Translations under genes and position numbers: made by a program
The notes under the pieces: model-generated
Told to the model about the DNA's origin: nothing
Seen by the model: the letters and a program-made list of their open reading frames with translations, nothing else
Databases searched by the model: none
NCBI GenBank assembly: GCA_963838485.1
Contig: CAWIRY010000115.1
Span: 2,323-66,322, forward strand
Direction of reading: 5' to 3'
Origin: an uncultured delta proteobacterium
Lineage (GTDB): Bacteria > Desulfobacterota > RBG-13-43-22
DNA length: 64,000 nt
Shown here: in pieces, positions 2,249 through 63,497 of the stretch
How the letters are laid out: every line of letters starts with the position of its first letter
Numbering within the stretch: position 1 is the stretch's first letter

Positions 2249-2602
2249 TCAGAAATTAAAGACTTTGGCTTCGGCGGCCAGATCGATCAAATGGGGTCCC
2301 CCATCCAGGACCATATTGGAAAAGAATTTGGCCTCATCCACCTGACGGGCCTTGGCACAGGGGATTCAGACCCCGATGGGGATCTCGTTTTCCACCAGAT
2401 AGGGCAGATAGTCATCGGGGCAGTCTCCGGTTGCCGTTTTGCCGGACATATCCCGGCTGGAATCGGCCCATCTTACCCCGTCGTCGATAAAAAAGACATC
2501 CACCTTATGTCCTTTGGAATGGGCGATCTTACTGAACTGAAAACACCGGGTGGCACTTCCCACCTCATCTTTGCTCAAGACAAATAAAAAATTGGCCATC
2601 AC
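2249..2602 (-). CDS. DsrE/DsrF (YchN)-like family protein with an in-frame TGA (candidate selenocysteine, UxxC motif).
   Basis: Minus-strand ORF MMANFLFVLSKDEVGS...LPYLVENEIPIGV-[TGA at 2366..2368]-IPCAKARQVDEAKFFSNMVLDGGPHLIDLAAEAKVFNF. The reading frame continues cleanly through the TGA to a TGA stop at 2249-2251. An AAGGAG RBS precedes the start. The total of about 117 aa is typical of the DsrE family. Confidence 0.65.
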
Positions 2603-2620
2603 TTTCTCCTTGTTAAATTT

Positions 2621-3061
2621 TTAATCCCTTATTTGTGTTACAGGGTCTCCAGTTTTAACCTCTCCACTTTCAATGACCTGACAAAAAACGCCTTTGGTCG
2701 GTAAAAGCGAATATCCCTTGTAATTGTAGGTATGAGATCGGGAGAGGTCTTTCCCGAGTTGAATGATTATCAGTTTGGCTTTGCCTACCTGTAGTTTTGA
2801 TCCACAGTCCATGGAGTGGATATCGATTCCTTCGGTTCTGATATTTTCGGCAAAACATCCGGGTTCTGCTGAAAGGCCGGTTTCCCGGCAAAAGGTTTGG
2901 ACATCCTCTTCGGCCAGGAGACTGACCTCCTTTTCCGTTCCGGCATGGGAATCCCCCTCGAGACCCCAGGCCACCCGGAACAGACCAGCCTTAGCATTTT
3001 TTTTCGGTTCGGGCCGTTTTGGACTTAAACACACCCCAAGCACTTTACCGGATTTTTTCAT
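2621..3061 (-). CDS. MOSC domain-containing protein.
   Basis: 146 aa with ...GLEGDSHAG..., a MOSC-like beta-barrel signature. Confidence 0.65.
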   Translation of the reverse strand: MKKSGKVLGVCLSPKRPEPKKNAKAGLFRVAWGLEGDSHAGTEKEVSLLAEEDVQTFCRETGLSAEPGCFAENIRTEGIDIHSMDCGSKLQVGKAKLIIIQLGKDLSRSHTYNYKGYSLLPTKGVFCQVIESGEVKTGDPVTQIRD

Positions 3062-3092
3062 ATCAACCTGTTACTTCCCATTTCGCCCTTTT

Positions 3093-3698
3093 TTATTCAA
3101 AAGCCATTTCCGGTTTCCAAACTTCCCAGACCTTACCCACCAAATCAGGTCCGGGTGTGAGGGTCGTATTCCCCGGCTGCCAACCCGATGGTGTGGCCTC
3201 ACCCGTGGCCCGAACATGCTGGAAGGCCTTGACCTGTCGTAAGAGTTCCGAGACATTCCGGCCGACCGGTGGGGTAACCACCTCCATGGCTTGAATGATC
3301 CCGTCAGGGTCTATCAGGAAACGCCCCCTGATGTCAACACCGGCTTCATCGTCGTAAACCCCATAGACCTTTCCCACCAGTCCCCCGGCATCGGAGAGCA
3401 TGGGAAAGGGTATTCCCCCCTTGACCATTTTGGAAAGTTCCTCTTCATTCCAGATCTTGTGTATAAAACGGCTGTCTGTGCTCACTGAGAGGACCTGGAC
3501 TCCGAGGGCCTTAAATTCTTCATATTTGGAGGCGACCGCCGCCAACTCGGTGGGTCAGACAAAGGTGAAATCACCCGGATAAAAACAGAGTACCACCCAC
3601 TCCCCTTTAAATTTGGAGAGACTGATGTTTTCAAAACCGCCATCGATAAAGGCGTTCACTTCAAAATCAGGTGCGGGTTTGCCCACTTTTGCCGTCAT
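3093..3698 (-). CDS. 2-Cys peroxiredoxin (AhpC/Prx1 family) with an in-frame TGA at the peroxidatic Cys position (candidate Sec-peroxiredoxin).
   Basis: Minus-strand frame: [47 protein letters not shown]-[TGA 3555..3557][28 protein letters not shown]... The canonical FTFVCPTE motif has Cys replaced by TGA. An AGGAGG RBS lies 7 nt upstream of the ATG at 3696-3698. The ORF tracks 3555..3806 and 3093..3545 are the two halves. Confidence 0.85.
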
Positions 3699-3872
3699 GA
3701 TAACCTCCTGTGGTGTGTTGGGGTTTCCTGATTCGACCGATTCCGTCCGGGGTACCCCGATCGGACCCTTTGCCGGCTTTACACAACCATCTTTTGCTTT
3801 AGCCATAATAGTCTCCTTAATGTTTTAGGTAAAACAACTTTGTATTGAATGGACGACTATTGACGATCTCTT

Positions 3873-4628
3873 CTAAGACTTTAAAATTCGTAAGTTCAGC
3901 TTCCGGACAAAATTTTTAAAATCCCGTGTACCACCTCCTTCGCTTACCATTTGCAAAATCCCTTTTGGATCAATAATCTCTATCCCGGAAAGCATGGTGA
4001 CCGGGGTGTCTTTAAAGGCCTCTTTTAAAAGCGGGGTTGAAGTCCCTAAGAGGACCACCTCCCGGCAGGAGGCCGCGGCCCTGAGCAGAGGATCGATGGT
4101 ATTATTGAGAAGTGTCGTTGAAGTGATCAGGGCAATCTGGCATTTAGGCAGCCACTCAAAGGCGGCCTCTTCCGGCAGGATCTCCCCGGGCTGTTCCCAT
4201 TTTTCAAAAATGGTCAGGTGTTTTACCCTCTTTTTCAGTTCGGATACCATTGGGGCAAAGTATCCTACCATACCCACCTCATCCCCGGGGTGGAGATTCA
4301 GGACCTTTAAAATATCCCCTTCCTGTGCTCCATGGATTTGATGATTTATCAGGGCATTGGCCGCGGCCAACCCCACGGTGGCTTCAATTTTTTCACCTGA
4401 ATTGAGCCCGGACAAAAGCGCGCCCACCGGCCGGCCGGCCAAAGGACGGAGGCCATGGAATACGGAACAGCCGCCCGGCAAATCCTGTCGGAAGGTTAAG
4501 GCCAGGCCGGTCCGGCCCGATTCGAGTTGCACCGCTGTATACCCTAAGCCGATACGCACATCTTTGACTTCTTCTTTCATGCCCTTGTCTCGCAGGGCTT
4601 GGATAATCTTTTCCTGTATTTTTGTCAT
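3873..4628 (-). CDS. DUF364/DUF4213-type Rossmann-like domain protein (hypothetical).
   Basis: 251-aa ORF. Domain-level resemblance only. Confidence 0.45.
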   Translation of the reverse strand: MTKIQEKIIQALRDKGMKEEVKDVRIGLGYTAVQLESGRTGLALTFRQDLPGGCSVFHGLRPLAGRPVGALLSGLNSGEKIEATVGLAAANALINHQIHGAQEGDILKVLNLHPGDEVGMVGYFAPMVSELKKRVKHLTIFEKWEQPGEILPEEAAFEWLPKCQIALITSTTLLNNTIDPLLRAAASCREVVLLGTSTPLLKEAFKDTPVTMLSGIEIIDPKGILQMVSEGGGTRDFKNFVRKLNLRILKS

Positions 4629-21213: not shown

Positions 21214-21504
21214 TTAAGCCGGGCCGATAACCCAGTTCTGGATCAAAGAGAGCGTCAGTACCCGGTAATTTTTAAAGACTTTCCCCAGTTCTTCATACTT
21301 GACCTTGGCCAGGGGCGGATACATCATCAGGATCAGGCCGATGGCGATGGGGAGATTGGTCGTATCATATTGGAAGAGATTCCAGAACTGAACTACCTTG
21401 GGATAGAGATAGCCGGACCCTACACCCACCAGCATGGCCAAAAAGATCCACAGGGTCAGAAAACGGTCCAGAAAGGAAAGTTTTTTAGGAGTCGTTTCGG
21501 GCAT
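21214..21504 (-). pseudogene. 5'-terminal fragment (96 codons) of an ACR3 arsenite efflux gene; truncated duplicate of 34474..35565.
   Basis: [25 protein letters not shown]... is about 95% identical to the N-terminus of the full-length copy. Homology to the second copy ends at about 21222. Confidence 0.75.
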
Positions 21505-21610
21505 AGTGTTTCCCTCCTTTTCAGGTTTTAAGAAGGGCCTCGATTTGTTCCTTTATTAATGATTCCGGCGGAATCTTTGAGAATGGACCATTCTCGGAGA
21601 CATAGAACCG

Positions 21611-21844
21611 TCACCCCAGGCCGGTTTGGGAAAGCTTCCTGGCCGACGGTTCCAAATCGAAGCCATTGATTTTAATGGTCGGAGAGCCGAAAAATTGATT
21701 TGTCCTGGCTTCTTCCTCGGTATTTATTAAAATTGGTTCAATCAGGATGTTGAGCTGTTTTTCATCTAACACTTTTTGAACCGCCTCCAGCGCCTTGTCT
21801 TTGGCCGGTCAACCCCGGGTATAAAGGACCTGAATATTATGCAT
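21611..21844 (-). CDS. Thioredoxin_3 (redox-active disulfide protein 2)-like 77-aa protein with an in-frame TGA in place of the first CxxC Cys (candidate single-Sec protein).
   Basis: MHNIQVLYTRG-[TGA 21809..21811]-PAKDKALEAVQKVLDEKQLNILIEPILINTEEEARTNQFFGSPTIKINGFDLEPSARKLSQTGLG*. It aligns in length and motif with the Cys paralog at 42163..42396 (VLGPGCPKCG...FGVISTPAVVVDG). Confidence 0.5.
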
Positions 21845-21896
21845 AATCTCCCCGTACTAAAAAAGTTTTCCATCTCCCGGATGGCAAGCATCAGGA

Positions 21897-22169
21897 TCAG
21901 CCATCGGCATCAGTGCCGGGTTGGATCTCGAGGGGAGGAAATGGGGTTGAGGATTGAGGGTTTGTAGCCTTCTTTTCTGGAGTGGGCTTAGGGGCAGGGT
22001 TTGGCTTGTCCGAATTCGAAGTCTGCTTATTGTCCTCAGAACATTCCTGCTGTTGCGGATTGGCTGAACCGGGGGGAAGGTTTTTTTTCTCCTCGGCAAA
22101 AGAAAAGGACCCGATTAGAATAATCAGTAAAACCAAAAACAGTATTGTCAATATGTTTCGACCTGTCAT
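21897..22169 (-). CDS. Secreted Pro/Gln-rich low-complexity protein (signal peptide).
   Basis: MTGRNILTILFLVLLIILIGSFSFA-EEKKNLPPGSANPQQQECSEDNK... Confidence 0.45.
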   Translation of the reverse strand: MTGRNILTILFLVLLIILIGSFSFAEEKKNLPPGSANPQQQECSEDNKQTSNSDKPNPAPKPTPEKKATNPQSSTPFPPLEIQPGTDADG

Positions 22170-22879
22170 AGCCTATCTTACCTTTATTCCTTTCCAATGT
22201 TTGTTAAATAAAGGTACTATACCCGGCAGCCTCCAATATTTCAATCAATCTTTGTCTCACCGCAATTCGGAGGGCAAAGAGGGCGATAACGCAAGATGGG
22301 TATTTCGTCTCCATAAAAAGAGAGGGGAGTGAAGAGTTGGGATCGCTGACTCAAGATCAATGTTACCGAGGTTTAGGGGATAACCTGCCATATTGTGATT
22401 GAGTTTGGAAGATTTTTTAAAGCTTTGTCTCAATGGCAGCTCTCAACAGAAAGAGGTTCAGGGTTTTGAACTGTGCCGTTAGCCTATTTATGCTTGACAA
22501 TCCTGCTTGTTATACCATTAAAATTACAAAGAATTTTATGGGGAATGCCCCGACTGAAACCCCATAAGATATTGTGATCCTTCCTCAGCGGCTCCGTTCT
22601 TCATGCGTCAATCCAAAATTGCTTTCAATGCTTTGAATATTTTCATGTTCTTCCTGCGAGCAACTTCGGATTGACGCTTATTCGAAATGTGGGAGAATTG
22701 GTTGGAATATCTCGGCCTTGACCTCTGGATGGCTTTGTTTTTTTTGCTTCGGTCCTCTTTATCTTTGAGCTGGCTCTGAGTTTATCACATTGTCCATTTT
22801 TCGGGGACCACTTTACCTCCGAGCACACCGACTGTTCGATGGAACCATTGACCTCAAGGTTGCCAGGATTGGTGTTCAA

Positions 22880-34473: not shown

Positions 34474-35565
34474 TTATGGTTTGCAGGTGACATGACAAAC
34501 ACCGGTCGGCGTTTCTACGGCAAAGGGGAAGTATTTCCGTTTGAACCAGAGGGCTACGTTGACCAGACTGATCAGGACCGGGACCTCGACCAATGGGCCG
34601 ATGACGGCGGCAAAGGCCGCTCCCGATTTGATGCCGAAAACGGCCACGGCCACGGCAATGGCCAGCTCGAAATTATTGGAGGCGGCGGTGAAGCTCAAGG
34701 TGGTGGCCTGTTCATAAGTCGCCTTGACCTTCACGGACATATAGAAAGAGATAAAGAACATGATGACGAAATAGATCACCAAAGGCAGGGCAATACGCAG
34801 CACATCTAAGGGCAATTGGACGATATATTCCCCTTTGAGAGAGAACATGACGATAATGGTGAAGAGCAGGGCGATGAGGGTGATAGGACTGATTTTGGGG
34901 ATGAATTTTTCATGGTACCAAATCTTGCCCTTGATTTTGATCAGGGTGAATCGGGTGATGATCCCGGCAATAAAAGGAATCCCCAGATAAATAAAAACAC
35001 TCTTGGCGATCTGGCCGATGGAGATGTCCACCACCGTGCCTTTCAGGCCGAACCAGCCCGGCAGGATGGTGATAAAGATATAGGCGTAAACGGAGAAAAA
35101 GAGGACCTGAAAGATGGAATTGAAAGCCACCAAACCGGCACAGTATTCGGTGTCGCCAGAGGCCAGTTCATTCCAGACAATGACCATGGCGATACAGCGG
35201 GCCAGACCGATCATGATTAAACCCACCATGTATTCCGGGTATCCGGCCAGAAAAAGGATGGCCAGAAAGAACATGAGGATGGGGCCGATAACCCAGTTCT
35301 GGATCAAAGAAAGCGTCAGTACCCGGTAATTTTTAAAGACTTCCCCCAGTTCCTCATACTTGACCTTGGCTAAGGGTGGATACATCATCAGGATCAGGCC
35401 GATGGCGATGGGGAGATTGGTGGTGTCATATTGGAAGAGATTCCAGAACTGGACCACCTGGGGATAGAGATAGCCGGACCCTACACCTACCAGCATGGCC
35501 AAAAAGATCCACAGGGTCAGAAAACGGTCCAGAAAGGAAAGTTTTTTAGGGGTTGGTTCGGTCAT
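34474..35565 (-). CDS. acr3: Arsenite efflux transporter, ACR3 family.
   Basis: 363 aa, [25 protein letters not shown]... with 10 TM helices. Confidence 0.9.
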
Positions 35566-35670
35566 TTGTCCTCCTTCCTTGTCAGGTGTTAAGAAGAGCC
35601 TTGATTTGTTCTCTGATTAATGATTTCGGTGGAATTTTTGAGAATGAACCATTCTCGGAAATGTAATAGC

Positions 35671-35905
35671 GTCACCCCAAGCCGGTTTGCCATAGGTCCC
35701 TGGCGGAGGGTTCCAAATCGAAGCCATTGATTTTAATGGTTGGAGAGCCGAGAAATTGATTTGTCCTGGCTTCTTCCTCGGTATTTATTAAAATTGGTTC
35801 AATCAGGATGTTGAGCTGCTTTTCATCTAACACTTTTTGAATCGCCTCCAGTGCCTTGTTTTTGGCCAGTCAGCCCTGGGTATAAAGGACCTGAATATTA
35901 TGCAT
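35671..35905 (-). pseudogene. Second copy of the TGA-containing thioredoxin_3-like gene. The in-frame TGA is conserved, but a 1-nt insertion (C at about 35816) shifts the frame after codon 28.
   Basis: MHNIQVLYTQG-[TGA 35870..35872]-LAKNKALEAIQKVLDE, then a frameshift. With the extra C removed it reads through as copy 1 does (...SPTIKINGFDLEPSARDLWQTGLG). Confidence 0.45.
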
Positions 35906-35958
35906 AGTCTCTCCCGCACTGAAAAAGTTTTCCATCTCCCGGATGGCAAGCATCAGGA

Positions 35959-36231
35959 TCAGCCATCGGCATCAGTGCCGGGTTGGATCTCGAGCGGAGG
36001 AAATGGGGTTGAGGATTGAGGGTTTGTAGCCTTCTTTTCCGGAGTGGGCTTAGGAGCAGGGTTTGGCTTGTCCGAATTAGAAGCCTTCTTGTTGTCCTCA
36101 GAACACTCTTGCTGTTGCGGATTGGCTGAACCGGGGGGAAGGTTTTTTTTCTCCTCGGCAAAAGAAAAGGACCCGATTAGAATAATCAGTAAAACCAAAA
36201 ACAGTTTTGTTAATATATTTCGATTTGTCAT
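35959..36231 (-). CDS. Secreted Pro/Gln-rich protein (copy 2).
   Basis: MTNRNILTKLFLVLLIILIGSFSFAEEKK... Confidence 0.45.
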   Translation of the reverse strand: MTNRNILTKLFLVLLIILIGSFSFAEEKKNLPPGSANPQQQECSEDNKKASNSDKPNPAPKPTPEKKATNPQSSTPFPPLEIQPGTDADG

Positions 36232-36265
36232 AACCTTCCTAACCTTTATTCCTTTCCAGCAGGGG

Positions 36266-37480
36266 TTAAATAAAGGTACTATACCCGGCAGCCTCCAATA
36301 TTTCAATCAGTCTTTGCCTCAAGCTATAATACCTCCAGTCCCAAAGCCTCGAGAGAAATTCTTTCCACGGTATAATATGAATGCCATCGTGAATCCGTTG
36401 CTTACGTTCATTGCATACCAGGTAGGCGCTCCTAGGCTGGTAGTCCTGGACGAAGGCCTTCAGGGGACGGAGTTCTGCGCTGCCGATACGAGCGGCGCCC
36501 TTGACTTCGATAGCGATTTCCCCGCGGCCTAATATAAAATCAACTTCCAAACCCGTTTTGGTCCTCCAGAAATTAATCTCATATTCCAGATCACTGTAGG
36601 AACGATGGGCGATGAACTCCATGAGGATAAAATGCTCAAAGGCCCTTCCAAACTGTTCTCCCTTTTGTTCAGGGATATGGCGCCCGGTGAGACCACCGAC
36701 AATTCCAACATCGAACAAATAGAACTTTCCAGCCTTGGTGATGACCTGCCTTTCCTGGCGTTTTTTGTACGGCTCGATCATGATCCCGAGTAAGGTGTCA
36801 ACCAGGATTTGATAATATTCTTTGACGGTTTTAGCATCCACCCCGCATTCCCGGGCGATGTTGGCATAGTTGGTCAATTCCCCGTGGGAATATCCCATAG
36901 CCTCAAAAAATCTTGAAAAGGCTGGAATATTCCGGGTAAGACCTTCATCAAAAACCTCCTCTTTGAGGTAATCCCGGACATAAGACCGAAGCGATTTACG
37001 GTATTCTTCTTCCAGATAATGAGCGGGTATCAGGCCCCTATTTAAGGCCTTGAGGAGATCGAGGTTCCCTATTTCCATAGAAATCAGCGGATGCATCTCG
37101 TAACGCCAGGCCCGGCCTCCCAGGAGGTTGGCCTTGCCCCGTTTCAATTTCCTGGCGCTGGAACCGCATAAAAGGAAACGAAGTCCCTTGTTCTCTATTA
37201 GCCAGTGCACCTCATCAAGCAATTGCGGGACCTTTTGGACTTCATCAATGATGATCGGCTCCTTGAGTTGCTGCGGATTGGATGCCAAGAGCTGTTCTCG
37301 TAACAGATAGGGGCGCTTGGCGAAATCCAGGAAAAGATCAGTTCGCAACAAATCGAACCGCAGGCTTTTAGGGAAAGCCTCTTTAAGGAAGGTTGTTTTT
37401 CCAGTTTTTCTCGGTCCCCAGAGAAAAGCTGACTTTCCTTTCGGAAGGGTGATCCGGATTATTCTTTTGATGTTAACCAT
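36266..37480 (-). CDS. AAA+ ATPase with a DUF4143-type C-terminal domain.
   Basis: 404 aa with the Walker A GPRKTGKTT. Confidence 0.7.
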   Translation of the reverse strand: MVNIKRIIRITLPKGKSAFLWGPRKTGKTTFLKEAFPKSLRFDLLRTDLFLDFAKRPYLLREQLLASNPQQLKEPIIIDEVQKVPQLLDEVHWLIENKGLRFLLCGSSARKLKRGKANLLGGRAWRYEMHPLISMEIGNLDLLKALNRGLIPAHYLEEEYRKSLRSYVRDYLKEEVFDEGLTRNIPAFSRFFEAMGYSHGELTNYANIARECGVDAKTVKEYYQILVDTLLGIMIEPYKKRQERQVITKAGKFYLFDVGIVGGLTGRHIPEQKGEQFGRAFEHFILMEFIAHRSYSDLEYEINFWRTKTGLEVDFILGRGEIAIEVKGAARIGSAELRPLKAFVQDYQPRSAYLVCNERKQRIHDGIHIIPWKEFLSRLWDWRYYSLRQRLIEILEAAGYSTFI

Positions 37481-48722: not shown

Positions 48723-48911
48723 TTACCACCAACTTGCAACCTTATCATGAGAAAAGATAAGCTCCACCAGTTTGGCGTAATCCACCTCTCCTTCATAAAG
48801 AGAAAAACTATCCGCCTCGTTTTCCTCGGAAAGGATTTTGGCTAATTTAAGGACTTCCTCAGTAGGCCTGGATCGATAAATGTGTAAGAGTTTCATGGCT
48901 ACCTCATTCAA
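48723..48911 (-). CDS. DsrH/TusB-like small protein (tentative).
   Basis: 62 aa, MKLLHIY...SFSLYEGEVDY...VASWW, which resembles the TusB/DsrH pattern. It follows a DsrE-DsrF-like gene pair. Confidence 0.4.
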   Translation of the reverse strand: MNEVAMKLLHIYRSRPTEEVLKLAKILSEENEADSFSLYEGEVDYAKLVELIFSHDKVASWW

Positions 48912-49033
48912 GGTTCAAGGTTCAAGGTACGAGGTATAAAGTTTAAAGAAAAACCACATGCCGGATATTTGTATCTCCCATCAAAAGTTTTTCAATACCC
49001 ATTCCTTTTGAGGGCACCACAAGGCATGAAAAA

Positions 49034-49122
49034 GGATTCGGGGGTCCGGGGGTCAAGGATTCAAGTGAAAGGGTTGAATTAAAACCCCTTGAACCCTCGA
49101 CCCCTGGAATCCTGGAACCCTA
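49034..49122. repeat. Member of a dispersed short intergenic repeat family (GGATTCAAG...AAAACCC...TTGAACCC, imperfect palindrome).
   Basis: Shares about 60-70 nt with 62187..62265. Related GGTTCAAGG tandem or half copies occur at 48905..48940, 51019..51052, 61154..61186 and 34438..34472 (reverse orientation). Confidence 0.6.
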
Positions 49123-49130
49123 TTTTCGAA

Positions 49131-50988
49131 CTAAAAGGGAACTATAAAATCCATTTCTTTTAATTTTTGACCCAATTGTTCATAGGTAATGGGCTGAAAC
49201 CCATACTTCTCCACATTGGCCGGGACGTTGGAATATAATTCACCCTCCATATCCAGGACTGTGCGTCTTCAGCCACGATTGGACAAAGTTAGCATTAAAG
49301 GAGTTTGCATTTAGATAGCTGGTCTGGGCAAAAGTGGCTATAATTTAAATAGCCATAGAAAGGAACAAGAGGATGGAAACAGCAATCGCCCAGAAAGTGG
49401 ATCAGGAAGAAAGAGCACCGCAGGGAAGCGCGGCAAAACTCATCAGGGAAATTCGGACTAAGAACCGCAGGAAGTTCTCCTCAGAAGACAAGATCAGGAT
49501 TGTACTTGAAGGATTCCGAAAGGAACAACCCATCTCAGACCTCTGTAGAAGAGAGGGCATTTCATCTGCCCTTTACTATTCATGGCTCAAGGATTTCATG
49601 GAAGCAGGCAAGGCGCGCCTTAAGGGTGACAGCCTGAGAGAGGCAAACAATATTGAAGTCAAGGAACTCCGGTCAGAAAACGGCAGGCTGAAAGAGCTGG
49701 TAGGAGAACAGGCCCTGCATCTGCAGCTTTTTAAAAAAAGTCTGAATCCGTAGCGGAAGGCTGGTACCGGAAGATGGATGGGAAGAGCAGAGAGGATCTG
49801 ATCGTGAAGATAGAGAAGCAGGAAGGCAAGAAGGGTGAGGCGCTCAGAGACCTGGATATACCAAGGTCTACCTATTACACCTGGCGGAAGGCCTATCAGT
49901 CACAGGGGATAGAAGGCGTTACCAAGACAAAACCCTCAGCCAAACGTATATGGAACCGACTGAGAGCGGTTGAGGTCGAGCAGGTGCTTGAAATTGCTCG
50001 CCTTACTCCAGAGCTTTCTCCAAGGCTTCTGGCTGTGAAGATCAGCGATGAAGAGGTCTTCTCAGTGTCAGAATCAACGGTCTATCGGATACTGAGGGAC
50101 AATAACCTGATAGCTCCCCGTCCACTTCCGGAGATGCCGGCTGAGAAACAGTGGAGGCATAAGACCGCTCATCCTGATGAACTTTGGCAGTGTGACGGAA
50201 CAAGCCTTTTTGTCATAGGATGGGGATACTACAAGCTCATCCCTGTTGAGGATGATTACTCACGAAAAATAATAGCTCATGACTTACGGCCTGATGAAAC
50301 AGGATTCAGCGTATCGGACATAATGGAGATGGGCATAGAGAACGCCAGAAGAGAAGGGCATCTGGTTGCCGCCATGCCGAAACTTTACACAGACAATGGC
50401 TCAGGCTTTGCCTCAAAGGTCCTTGCCGGGTATCTGGACGTCCATGGGATAAGACATATCTTCGGCACCCCATATCATCCTCAGGGCAGAGGGAAGATTG
50501 AGCGATTCAATCGGAGGATCAAGGAGAAGCTATGCCTTATGGTTTACTGCTCTCCCGATGAGCTCAAAAAGGCAATTGATGAGGCCATAGCAATCTATAA
50601 CGCTACCCCGCATGAAGCATTGAACAACGTATCCCCCAATGATGTCTATGCGGGAAGAAAGGAGGCCATTCTACAGAAGAGAAAAGAAAAAAAACAATTG
50701 ACCATGCAGCGGAGGAAACAGTACAATTTATACGGCAATGGGATTAACAATGATGGCTCAGATCAGTATCAAAGTGCAAACTCGCTATGACAAAATCTGT
50801 CCAAAAAGGTCTGAAGATATACAATCCAGGACCCAATCCAGATTTTCGCGAAAAGGCTCGGTCATTTCCACTTCATGATCAAGGACAAAGAAATACACCG
50901 AGTTATTCTCTGCAGCCAAGCCCAGGGTTGAGCGAAGCCCTTCCCAGTCTTCCTCCTTGGATCTTATTAAGAAAGCCACTTTTTTCAT
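49131..50988 (-). pseudogene. DsrF/TusC-like gene split by an IS insertion (N-terminal part 50824..50988, C-terminal part 49131..49258).
   Basis: N-terminal part [40 protein letters not shown]...DWVLD. C-terminal part VLDMEGELYSNVPANVEKYGFQPITYEQLGQKLKEMDFIVPF*. Both junctions carry GTCCTGGAT. Confidence 0.6.
49259..50823 (+). mobile_element. IS3-family insertion sequence: orfA 49373..49753, an A7 slippery site at about 49733, orfB 49774..50790 with an rve DDE domain. Imperfect terminal IRs TGTGCGTCTTCAG... / ...CTGAAGATATACA. Flanked by a 9-bp direct repeat ATCCAGGAC.
   Basis: OrfA has an HTH and leucine zipper (…LKDFMEAGKARL…ELVGEQALHLQLFKK). OrfB has DDE residues (DGT.., ..TDNGSGF.., ..E). 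The ends begin with TG and end with CA. Confidence 0.85.
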
Positions 50989-51055
50989 GTTGTTGTTCTC
51001 TCTTTATTACTGGTTTTTCCCCGGCCCCTTGACCCCTCGAATCCTGGACCCCTTT

Positions 51056-51364
51056 TTACATCACGATATAACGGTCCACTTCGTCGATCATCTCACCGTG
51101 GCGGGCCTGGGTGCCGAAATCTTTATCCCCTATTCCGGGGGCCGGCTTCCCTTTCAAGCCTTTAGATTCATAACTCACATTGCACAGGGATTTTTTCCCG
51201 AGACCGATCAACTCTTTGAACTCAGGTTCCTGGGTCAACATGACCCCTTTGTGGGTAAAGAAGAGAATCACTTCTTTGCCGGCCGCTTCGGCGGCCTTGG
51301 TGATTTCGATCACATGTCTGAGGTTTTTATCGGAGGAAACGAAGATCCCCAATTTTTCAGCCAT
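51056..51364 (-). CDS. DsrE/TusD-like family protein.
   Basis: 102 aa, MAEKLGIFVSSDKNLRHVIEITKAA...ILFFTHKGV... Confidence 0.65.
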   Translation of the reverse strand: MAEKLGIFVSSDKNLRHVIEITKAAEAAGKEVILFFTHKGVMLTQEPEFKELIGLGKKSLCNVSYESKGLKGKPAPGIGDKDFGTQARHGEMIDEVDRYIVM

Positions 51365-51379
51365 GACCTGCTCCTTATT

Positions 51380-51616
51380 TTATTTTTTCTTGACGTAAAA
51401 ACGGACAAACCCCTGGTCTTCTTTTTCTCCAAGATAGGTGTTTCCCGTACGATTGGTCCAGCCGGGCAGGTCATTTCTGGTCCCCGGATCGGTACTCATA
51501 ATCTCTAAGATCTGTCCGGATTTTAGGGTTTCAATAGCCTTTTTGGTTTTTAAAACCGGCATAGGGCAACTGAGTCCCCGGGCATCCAAAGTTTGATCGG
51601 GTTTAATATCTTCCAT
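51380..51616 (-). CDS. TusA-like sulfurtransferase (CPxP).
   Basis: 78 aa, LDARGLSCPMPVLKTKKA. Confidence 0.85.
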   Translation of the reverse strand: MEDIKPDQTLDARGLSCPMPVLKTKKAIETLKSGQILEIMSTDPGTRNDLPGWTNRTGNTYLGEKEDQGFVRFYVKKK

Positions 51617-51839
51617 GATGATTTCCTCCTTTTTGGATAAACTATAAGTTTACAACCGGATGTTGTCAAATGGTAATTTTTGGAAATTTTTCCTTGAAGA
51701 TGTCCGGCCCCAAGCCTAATTTATAGGTTTACAGCCCCGGCTTTTTTTAGTAAGACGGTCATTAATGAAAGTAACCGTTCGGAGTTTAAGGGCGAAGTTT
51801 AGAAAAATAGTTGGGAAGGAATAAAAACGACTTCAGGGT

Positions 51840-61150: not shown

Positions 61151-61175
61151 AAAAGGTTCAAGGTGCAAGGTTTGA

Positions 61176-62144
<969 letters not shown>

Positions 62145-62186
62145 TAAGGGGAATCCTGTACCCCAAAGGCAGCGACGAAATAGGCA

Positions 62187-62265
62187 AGAGGATTCAAAGG
62201 GTCATGGGCCCGAGGATTCAAGTGAAAGGTCTGGAAATTAAAACCCTGGAATCCTTGAACCCTGG
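62187..62265. repeat. Second full copy of the GGATTCAAG / TTGAACCC intergenic repeat, between argB and argD.
   Basis: gaggattcaagtgaaagg...aaaaccctggaatccttgaaccc. Confidence 0.6.
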
Positions 62266-62279
62266 TTTCACACTCAGAG

Positions 62280-63497
62280 GTGGATATTTTGACGGAATCC
62301 CAAAAAAACATCGATCAGATTGTGCAACGGGCCAATAGGGTCCTGATGCACACCTATGCCCGAATCCCGGTAGCCTTGGTCAAAGGGCAGGGGTGCCGGG
62401 TTTGGGATCAGGACGGGCGTGTTTATCTGGATTTTTTGGCCGGTATCGCCGTAACGGCCTTAGGACATAGTCATCCAAGGGTCGTGGAAAGCCTGAAGGA
62501 CCAAGCGGAAAAGATTTTTCATACTTCCAACCTGTATCACATCGAACCCCAGATTGCCCTGGCCGAAAAACTCGTTGCCCATTCGTTTGCCGACCAGGTT
62601 TTTTTCTGCAACAGCGGCACCGAGGCCAACGAAGGGGCCATCAAGCTGGTCCGCCGGTATTCCCATGAAAAATTCGGGCCCGAGAAAACCACCATCCTCT
62701 GTATGAAAAACAGCTTTCATGGTCGGACCCTCGGATCTCTCTCGGCCACCGGTCAGGTGAAATTTCAAAAGGGCTTTGGACCCTTGGTTCCTGGTTTTTC
62801 CTTTGTGCCTTTTAATGATCTTCCGGCCTTGGACCGAAATTGGGACCATTCGGTTTGTGCGGTCATGATGGAACCCATCCAAGGCGAGGGGGGCGTTCGG
62901 GTCCCTGACCCGGACTATCTCAAAGAGGTAAAAAAAAGGTGTCAGGAGCGTCAGGCCTTATTGATCTTGGATGAGGTCCAGACCGGCTTGGGACGTACCG
63001 GGTCCTTGTTTGCCCATGAACAGTTTGGCGTCCAACCGGATATCATGACCCTGGCCAAGTCCTTGGGAAATGGTCTGCCTATCGGGGCCTTGCTGGCCAC
63101 CAAGGAGGTGGCCGGCGCTTTCCAGCCGGGGACCCATGCGGCTACCTTTGGCGGAAATCCCCTGGTAACGGCCGTGGCCCTGACGGTTCTGTCGATCATT
63201 TCAGAGGAAGGGTTCCTGTCCCGGGTGAAACAAACAGGGGCCTTTTTCAAGGATCGCCTGAATGAGTTAAAGGGGGAATTTACCCAGGTAATTGAGGTCC
63301 GGGGCATGGGTCTCCTCCTGGGTATGGCCTTGGACCGACCGGGAAAGCCTTATGTCGAGGCTTGTTTTGATAAGGGCTTATTAATCAATTGTACGCAAGA
63401 CACGATCCTGCGGTTTACGCCGCCTTTGGTTGTTGAAGAAGAAGACGTTGAGTCCTTGATCAAGGTCTTGAGGGAACTTTTGAAAAAGGGATTATAA
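62280..63497 (+). CDS. argD: Acetylornithine aminotransferase (class III PLP aminotransferase).
   Basis: 405 aa, ...LILDEVQTGLGRTGSLFAHEQFGVQPDIMTLAKSLGNG... Confidence 0.85.
   Translation: MDILTESQKNIDQIVQRANRVLMHTYARIPVALVKGQGCRVWDQDGRVYLDFLAGIAVTALGHSHPRVVESLKDQAEKIFHTSNLYHIEPQIALAEKLVAHSFADQVFFCNSGTEANEGAIKLVRRYSHEKFGPEKTTILCMKNSFHGRTLGSLSATGQVKFQKGFGPLVPGFSFVPFNDLPALDRNWDHSVCAVMMEPIQGEGGVRVPDPDYLKEVKKRCQERQALLILDEVQTGLGRTGSLFAHEQFGVQPDIMTLAKSLGNGLPIGALLATKEVAGAFQPGTHAATFGGNPLVTAVALTVLSIISEEGFLSRVKQTGAFFKDRLNELKGEFTQVIEVRGMGLLLGMALDRPGKPYVEACFDKGLLINCTQDTILRFTPPLVVEEEDVESLIKVLRELLKKGL

Follow-up and report, generated by a model that had tools for sequence, protein, structure and literature searches.

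A recent insertion sequence of IS3 organisation and IS481-leaning transposase with a 9-bp target-site duplication, probably interrupting the third gene of a TusA-led operon in a Desulfobacca-like deltaproteobacterium

The window analysed here (64,000 nucleotides from an uncultured deltaproteobacterium; contig CAWIRY010000115.1, positions 2,323 to 66,322) carries an insertion sequence (IS) between two fragments of one short gene, with a 9-bp direct repeat at both junctions. This locus raises the question whether the repeat is a genuine target-site duplication (TSD) and, if so, what kind of element generated it and which gene was hit. A preliminary description had proposed a recently active IS3-family element with an A7 slippery run in its orfA/orfB overlap, inserted between the halves of a dsrF/tusC-like gene in a sulfur-relay-like cluster, and had pointed out that 9 bp is longer than usual for the IS3 family. 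According to our analysis, an element of IS3 organisation leaning towards IS481 has very probably inserted recently into a gene of 94 amino acids (aa) within a TusA-led operon, thereby duplicating 9 bp of its target. The element and its target are composed as follows.

49260..50823, plus strand: complete insertion sequence, its ends derived from the empty-site comparison and from the independent copies L006, L059, L128 and L005
49251..49259, no strand: left copy of the 9-bp TSD, ATCCAGGAC, present as a single copy in the uninterrupted orthologues L001 and L003
50824..50832, no strand: right copy of the 9-bp TSD, ATCCAGGAC, on the minus strand codons V53-L54-D55 of the target protein
50824..50988, minus strand: 5' fragment of the interrupted 94-aa gene of DsrE/F/H fold, codons 1-55
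49131..49259, minus strand: 3' fragment of the 94-aa gene with the duplicated VLD codons, codons 56-94 and the stop, derived from the rebuilt reading frame and the orthologue comparison
49260..49290, plus strand: left terminal inverted repeat (TGTGCGTCTTCAGCCACGATTGGACA...), matching the reverse complement of the right end
50793..50823, plus strand: right terminal inverted repeat (...TGTCCAAAAAGGTCTGAAGATATACA)

Once the IS and one copy of the repeat are taken out in silico, an open reading frame (ORF) of 94 aa results on the minus strand. Among 5.8 billion proteins searched, 285 are homologues of this rebuilt protein, most of them exactly 94-95 aa long; the best 94-aa homologues are 89% identical with a coverage of 100%, and of the named ones that of Desulfobacca sp. 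is closest. The alignment is gapless over the junction (...ENLDWVLD/MEGELYSN..., junction at the slash). Both fragments are in register, as expected from the earlier claim that halves of one gene lie on either side of the IS. In the uninterrupted orthologue of L001 and L003 (82.5% nucleotide identity) the coding-strand form of the repeat, GTCCTGGAT, occurs exactly once, at the homologous columns. Since the orthologous empty site carries the 9-mer only once, a shorter duplication is excluded and the 9-bp TSD is real; the proposed IS insertion is likewise borne out by the rebuilt 94-aa ORF and the single 9-mer. Both copies of ATCCAGGAC abut the IS ends directly, at 49251-49259 and 50824-50832; a repeat at both junctions had been seen before. 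The 9-mer has only four occurrences in the window with both strands counted, and the chance that nine flanking bases match is 4^-9, i.e. ~4e-6. The insertion is located at codon 55/56 and truncates the protein after residue 55.

The IS measures 1564 bp, has TGT...ACA ends and is oriented antisense to the interrupted operon. Its first bases are TGTGCG and its last ATATACA; the left end at 49260 reads TGTGCGTCTTCAGCC, the right end at 50823 ...GGTCTGAAGATATACA. The extent given in the preliminary description (49259..50823, 1565 bp) is correct on the right but off by one base at the left junction. The same end bases are found in the independent copies L006 (97% identity), L059 (95%) and L128 (99.7%), where similarity stops exactly there, and the partial copies L005, L129 and L130 agree with them. 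The terminal inverted repeats are imperfect and end in TG...CA as described earlier; the former count was ~21/29 identical positions, and the one made here is 19/29 ungapped, or 21/31. A terminal motif TGTnnnnCTTCAGC is common to 26 metagenomic relatives and similar to the end of ISMex16 (TGTCCGnCGTCAGC). The exact right-terminal 23-mer is present in 83 metagenome contigs.

The perfect TSD, the intact ORFs and nearly identical copies elsewhere (99.7-100% identity) indicate that the insertion is a recent transposition event, which agrees with the recent IS activity suggested before. Within the window no second copy of the IS was found, and a search of the genome contigs with OrfB returned only 2 loci.

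The coding part of the element comprises two ORFs with an overlap.

49373..49753, plus strand: orfA, 126 aa, HTH_Tnp_1 DNA-binding domain (PF01527, E 8e-12)
49774..50790, plus strand: orfB, 338 aa, DDE transposase with HTH_32, rve and rve_3 (Pfam) and a conserved ATG
49733..49740, plus strand: A7G motif in the orfA/orfB overlap, presumed -1 shift site on account of its conservation in relatives

OrfA matches positions 1-81 of the NCBIfam IS3 model, and an identical OrfA protein occurs on other contigs. In OrfB the predicted catalytic residues are D141, D207 and E243, together with K250; the HTH_32 region is also matched by HTH_23/28/29 of Pfam. Family placement was evaluated with the NCBIfam hidden Markov models (HMMs) for IS3 (NF033516, cut-off 160 bits) and IS481 (NF033577, cut-off 224 bits). 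The conceptual OrfAB fusion reaches 167.6 bits with the IS3 model, above the cut-off and spanning model positions 1-368, and 184.6 bits with the IS481 model, below the cut-off. OrfB alone stays below both cut-offs and has IS481 as its top-scoring model (168.4 bits compared with 129 bits for IS3), covering positions 2-283 of the 284 in that model. Scores and domains of OrfB and of reference transposases are listed below.

E. coli IS3 InsF (control): IS3 339 bits, IS481 91 bits; HTH_21, rve and rve_2
E. coli IS150 InsK (control): IS3 350 bits, IS481 89 bits; HTH_21, rve and rve_2
ISMex16 OrfB: IS3 186 bits, IS481 218 bits; HTH_32, rve and rve_3
OrfB of the window: IS3 129 bits, IS481 168 bits; HTH_32, rve and rve_3

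Among annotated elements of finished plasmids, ISMex16 and ISMch3 of Methylorubrum extorquens come closest with 38-40% OrfB identity; they carry the NCBI label 'IS3-like element ... family transposase' and a joined, frameshifted coding sequence. Around 1500 further OrfB homologues (E <1e-20) come mainly from short metagenome contigs, the usual situation for repeats; an exact-protein look-up of P0121, which is 100% identical to OrfB, returned no record. With the IS3 family the element shares the orfA/orfB overlap in 0/-1 frames, the TG...CA inverted repeats and a fused OrfAB above the curated HMM cut-off, so that the IS3-type organisation assigned to it in the preliminary description holds; the rules of NCBI also label it IS3 family. 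Two classical IS3 features are missing, namely a TSD of 3-5 bp and an OrfB with HTH_21, rve and rve_2. From IS481 it has the TGT...ACA ends and a TSD within 2-15 bp, and it lacks the single transposase ORF without frameshifting and a score above the HMM threshold. Judged by the IS481-like architecture and HMM score of OrfB, the element represents an atypical, IS481-leaning lineage within the IS3 family, and is best filed as an unnamed member of this ISMex16/ISMch3-like lineage.

The A7 run (49733-49739) is followed by a G, and the orfB frame is open from 49735, -1 relative to orfA. In the 26 relatives, which are otherwise ~70% identical, AAAAAAAG(T/C) is invariant, as are AAAAAAAGTCT together with the 0/-1 ORF arrangement and the orfB ATG (49774). 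Moreover, A7G(T/C) occurs in 8 of 9 ISMex16-like elements, the ninth having A6G. The slippery-type run recognised earlier is hence well conserved. Invariance of A7G and of the 0/-1 arrangement in diverged relatives argues for selected slippage making OrfAB, and production of the fusion appears likely from this pattern. The fusion might arise by -1 slippage of tRNA-Lys on the ribosome or by transcriptional slippage that lengthens A7 to A8; alternatively, OrfB may act autonomously. Rfam gave no match in the A7G region or anywhere in the 64-kb window.

A promoter-like site (TCCACA-18-TATAAT, 10/12) is located at 49210-49239 (plus strand) in the target DNA, ~20 bp upstream of the left IS end and directed towards orfA. 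It might drive transposase expression here; such sites are no more numerous in the region than expected from shuffled sequence.

TSDs of IS3 elements comprise 3 bp in most groups, 4 bp in the IS407 group and 5 bp in the IS2 group, those of IS481 elements 2-15 bp and mostly 6 (PMC10045372). With 9 bp, the duplication here does exceed the 3-5 bp norm of the IS3 subgroups. Perfect abutting repeats were found in 2 of 17 ISMex16-like copies of finished plasmids: a 10-bp repeat (ACCGTGACGG) flanks a copy in Rhodopseudomonas pBAL398.3, and a 9-bp repeat (GTCGTGTAC) flanks the copy at 162160-163669 of Methylobacterium pLVM1. Including the window there are three independent sites of 9-10 bp, where ~2e-4 such matches are expected by chance over ~55 copies. 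The long duplication looks like a trait of the ISMex16-like clade as far as these flanks go. It may already be recorded in ISfinder; a literature search for IS3-family elements with 9-bp TSDs or for properties of ISMex16/ISMch3 found nothing specific.

The other copies (~37 metagenomic, 15 plasmid-borne) do not show any repeat. In the metagenomes, no flanking repeat was detected for 26 further full-length relatives from an end-motif scan, the loci with the OrfB protein P0177 and the copies on long contigs, searched up to 600 bp. An all-against-all pairing of 33 left with 84 right flanks recovered only the window's own pair, and in a search for imperfect or decayed TSDs the mismatch counts over 9 bp were at random expectation. 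In every repeat-less case tested the flanks are non-contiguous or shuffled: the copies of L009 and L037 are flanked by unrelated truncated genes, and copy 2 of pLVM1 lies within a broken older copy. Metagenome contigs are uninformative on TSD length, their flanks being shuffled between samples or situated in unrelated truncated genes. Given these non-contiguous flanks, TSD absence is ascribed to assembly shuffling, recombination between copies or adjacent deletions, causes known from IS elements (PMC11708052), and not to a change in insertion chemistry; even so, the large share of TSD-less copies deserves attention.

Some of these copies show further peculiarities. The lake metagenome contigs L108-L117 encode identical OrfB (P0177), and the IS on them has three or more left and four or more right flanks that are combined differently between samples. 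Either these contigs were assembled chimerically over a multi-copy IS, or its copies have in fact recombined with one another; the finding is a warning against TSD inference from such contigs. The 75-kb contig of L128 (ENA ERZ25039509 contig_35946; L128:1-5381) bears an IS copy 99.7% identical at 2388-3951 with a CRISPR array directly to the left, a truncated cas3 to the right and no TSD, apparently the product of a deletion or rearrangement associated with the IS within a CRISPR-Cas locus. At 185175-187973 of pLVM1 (CP029174.1) an ISMex16-like copy is nested in an older copy of itself, which is also split by the IS5-family element ISMpo7, where 4 bases (IS positions 1432-1435) are duplicated.

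The interrupted 94-aa gene is the third of four genes in its operon. The remaining genes and a promoter-like site are as follows.

51380..51616, minus strand: TusA-family sulfur carrier gene, 78 aa, first in the operon (Pfam TusA, E 9e-26)
51056..51364, minus strand: 102-aa gene of DsrE fold with invariant Cys61, second in the operon
48723..48896, minus strand: 57-aa gene downstream of the insertion, fourth in the operon, with a faint TusB/DsrH-like C-terminal motif
51641..51669, minus strand: promoter-like site TTGACA-17-TATAGT (11/12) upstream of tusA, a putative promoter from a consensus scan only

The intact relatives L001-L003 show the same order (TusA with 78 aa, then 102 aa, 94 aa and 62 (57) aa), and thus supply the uninterrupted arrangement with which a comparison had been suggested. 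TusA matches PF01206 with 90 bits (cut-off 28.6) and has the cysteine motif GLSCPMP (CPMP; CPxP type); with the NCBIfam TusA model it scores 61 bits, below the cut-off of 78. A DsrE/F/H fold was found for the 94-aa and the 102-aa protein, and Cys61 of the latter is invariant in 22 homologues. The 57-aa gene starts at the MKLL methionine at 48896, and its homologues have 56-58 aa. Sub-threshold matches to TIGR03011 in 12 of 27 members of this family fall on the C-terminal 20 positions of the TusB/DsrH model; a conserved Cys is not found in the family. The identity of the 94-aa protein is highest to DsrF (23%) and TusC (20%). The earlier dsrF/tusC-like label of the split gene therefore holds for fold and top identity but not at the level of family HMM thresholds. 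At fold level the operon can fairly be described as TusA with three miniature DsrE/F/H-like proteins; its assignment to DsrEFH/TusBCD is only putative. Polarity on the downstream 57-aa gene is expected and probably occurs, since the IS is inserted in antisense orientation to the operon.

The families of the 94-, 102- and 57-aa proteins (P0001-P0120, P0241-P0321, P0338-P0469) always appear together after TusA in Desulfobacterota-type contigs and are without Pfam assignment above threshold. In the relatives, a gene for a MarR/TrmB-type regulator lies ahead of the operon and one for a DrsE_2 protein behind it. The 94-aa and the 57-aa gene are separated by ~220 bp here and by ~26 bp in intact relatives. 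At 49028-49126 an imperfect palindrome of ~100 nt (GGGGGTCCGGGGGTCAAGGATTCAAG...CTTGAACCCTCGACCCCTGGAATCC) is predicted to fold into a long hairpin (z -3.5). It recurs in the window, with related stretches at 62185-62285 and 51015-51055, and has the appearance of another small insertion within this operon, resembling repetitive extragenic palindromes or miniature inverted-repeat transposable elements. Short repeats of the GGTTCAAGG type are located at 48912-48954 and 61153-61190.

The sequence of events would be that a 1564-bp IS transposed into codon 55/56 of the 94-aa DsrE/F/H-fold gene of a Desulfobacca-like deltaproteobacterium and thereby duplicated 9 bp of the target, GTCCTGGAT on the coding strand. 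An OrfAB fusion transposase was presumably made at A7G by -1 ribosomal or transcriptional slippage, and transposition presumably proceeded by copy-out/paste-in as in IS3 relatives. The insertion would leave a 94-aa protein truncated after residue 55, with likely polarity on the 57-aa gene. In the lineage as a whole, including the alphaproteobacterial ISMex16 and ISMch3, the visible intact duplications are 9-10 bp rather than 3-5 bp.

Several points weigh against this account. A flanking repeat is seen in only 3 of ~55 examined copies of the lineage, such that the 9-10 bp rule rests on three sites. The orfA frame reads AAA AAA AGU and not the canonical A_AAA_AAG phase, no conserved stimulatory structure was found downstream of A7G (RNAalifold, -2 kcal/mol, no covariation), and OrfB possesses its own conserved ATG and covers the IS481 model over its full length, so that frameshifting is inferred. 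As to the target, the 102-, 94- and 57-aa proteins all stay under the Pfam/NCBIfam thresholds: the 102-aa protein scores 16.2 bits with DsrE (threshold 22.7), the 94-aa protein has no family HMM match, and the 57-aa protein scores 16.7 bits with TIGR03011 (threshold 49.2). The putative sulfur-relay role rests on TusA, gene adjacency and fold similarity, and both the polar effect and the loss of function are predicted.

The points on OrfB lead to the alternative that survives best, namely that the element is functionally an IS481: OrfB made from its own ATG would be the complete transposase, orfA accessory or regulatory, and no frameshift would be needed. The 9-bp TSD would fall within the IS481 range of 2-15 bp (PMC10045372). 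The near-complete coverage of the IS481 model with a score above IS3, the combination of HTH_32, rve and rve_3 unlike the OrfB of IS3 and IS150, the invariant orfB ATG and an off-phase A-run without conserved frameshift-stimulating structure are in line with it. However, the IS481 scores remain under the cut-off (184.6 or 168.4 against 224 bits), whereas OrfAB exceeds that for IS3 along the entire model (1-368). Moreover, A7G and the 0/-1 overlap are invariant across lineages of 38-70% identity, which is difficult to account for unless slippage is under selection, the IS481 family is described as having one ORF per element, and the closest named relatives are annotated by NCBI as IS3-like with a joined frameshifted coding sequence. 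We hence regard a functional IS481 as unlikely and prefer an element of IS3 organisation that leans towards IS481.

A chimeric assembly, in which a repeat-collapsed IS has been joined to unrelated flanks, would fit the shuffled flanks among samples and the non-contiguous flanking genes on the contigs of relatives. Here, however, the flanks form the two parts of a single gene, keep its register and carry a perfect TSD, which a chimera would not yield, and we consider it very improbable for this locus. The idea of a coincidental repeat, with a true duplication of 3-5 bp or IS ends elsewhere, draws on the IS3-family expectation only and on the many repeat-less copies, and is refuted by the gapless rebuilt protein of exactly 94 aa and the single 9-mer in the orthologue, besides IS ends fixed by four other copies, a chance of ~4e-6 and two relatives with 9 and 10 bp, so that practically nothing speaks for it.

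More tentatively, and with the balance leaning against it, the element, ISMex16, ISMch3 and hundreds of metagenomic relatives could form a distinct subgroup bridging IS3 and IS481. Its traits may include an IS3-style orfA, an off-phase A7G with -1 overlap that lacks a stimulatory RNA structure, a transposase of IS481 type with a start codon of its own, TSDs of 9-10 bp and many TSD-less copies with non-contiguous flanks such as the cas3/CRISPR-array deletion. The last trait would point to frequent adjacent deletions or to replicative, intramolecular events.

Elsewhere in the window, a direct repeat of 1041 bp (21221-22259 and 35282-36321) is 92% identical, 14 kb apart and without a long ORF. 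It contains, on the minus strand (21214-21504), an apparent N-terminal portion of a gene for ACR3-type arsenite efflux.

As an event, the insertion is ordinary, a clean natural knock-out that marks a recently active IS; only the clade-level duplication of 9-10 bp is mildly surprising. With this element there is further, securely anchored evidence for duplications of this length by elements of IS3 organisation whose catalytic ORF is IS481-like. TSD length reflects the geometry of the transpososome on the target DNA, and the lineage could therefore help to work out how discrete TSD lengths switch in the IS3/IS481/IS1202 group. Programs that call IS boundaries by TSDs and are tuned to 3-5 bp for "IS3 family" would mis-call such elements. 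If the bridging subgroup is true and unrecognised so far, the accepted 3-5 bp TSD rule for IS3-organised elements would be extended. The operon represents a compact, uncharacterised unit of TusA and mini-DsrE/F/H proteins conserved in Desulfobaccales-like bacteria, and the natural knock-out of one of its genes suggests that it is dispensable under the sampled conditions.

Among known elements, ISMex16 and ISMch3 are the most similar. They measure ~1.5 kb and have TGT...ACA ends, a terminal motif related to the one here (TGTnCGnCnTCAGC), orfA and orfB in 0/-1 frames with the same A7G motif, an OrfB with HTH_32, rve and rve_3 that scores higher for IS481 than for IS3, and flanking repeats of 9 or 10 bp where intact. 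They differ by an OrfB identity of 38-40%, a length of 1510 bp in contrast to 1564 bp, and their location on alphaproteobacterial plasmids instead of a Desulfobacca-like chromosome. IS3, IS150 and IS911 share the two ORFs in 0/-1 frames with an A-rich run that is putatively slippery here, an OrfA with HTH_Tnp_1, a DD(35)E rve transposase, TG...CA inverted repeats and, as for OrfAB here, placement above the IS3 cut-off. In contrast, their TSDs are 3-5 bp long and not 9 bp, and the OrfB of the window is without the HTH_21 and rve_2 of IS3 and IS150, has HTH_32 instead and scores 129 bits rather than 339-350 bits with the IS3 model. The analogy to IS911 and IS150 is weakened further by the A-run off the canonical phase, the missing conserved downstream helix and an OrfB with an invariant ATG that covers the whole IS481 model. 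IS481 members resemble the element in their TGT...ACA ends, a transposase with HTH_32 and rve, the best-scoring HMM and a TSD range of 2-15 bp; they lack orfA and the conserved frameshift-type overlap, and the score here is under their cut-off. With roughly 1-1.3 kb, IS481 members are also shorter than the 1.56 kb found here. The operon, finally, resembles DsrEFH/TusBCD with TusA in that tusA is followed by three small genes, two of them with DsrE/F/H fold, and the 102-aa protein has in its invariant Cys a candidate counterpart to Cys78 of DsrE or TusD; its proteins of 102, 94 and 57 aa are much shorter than the PDB chains of DsrEFH (130/132/101) and of TusC/TusB (119/95).

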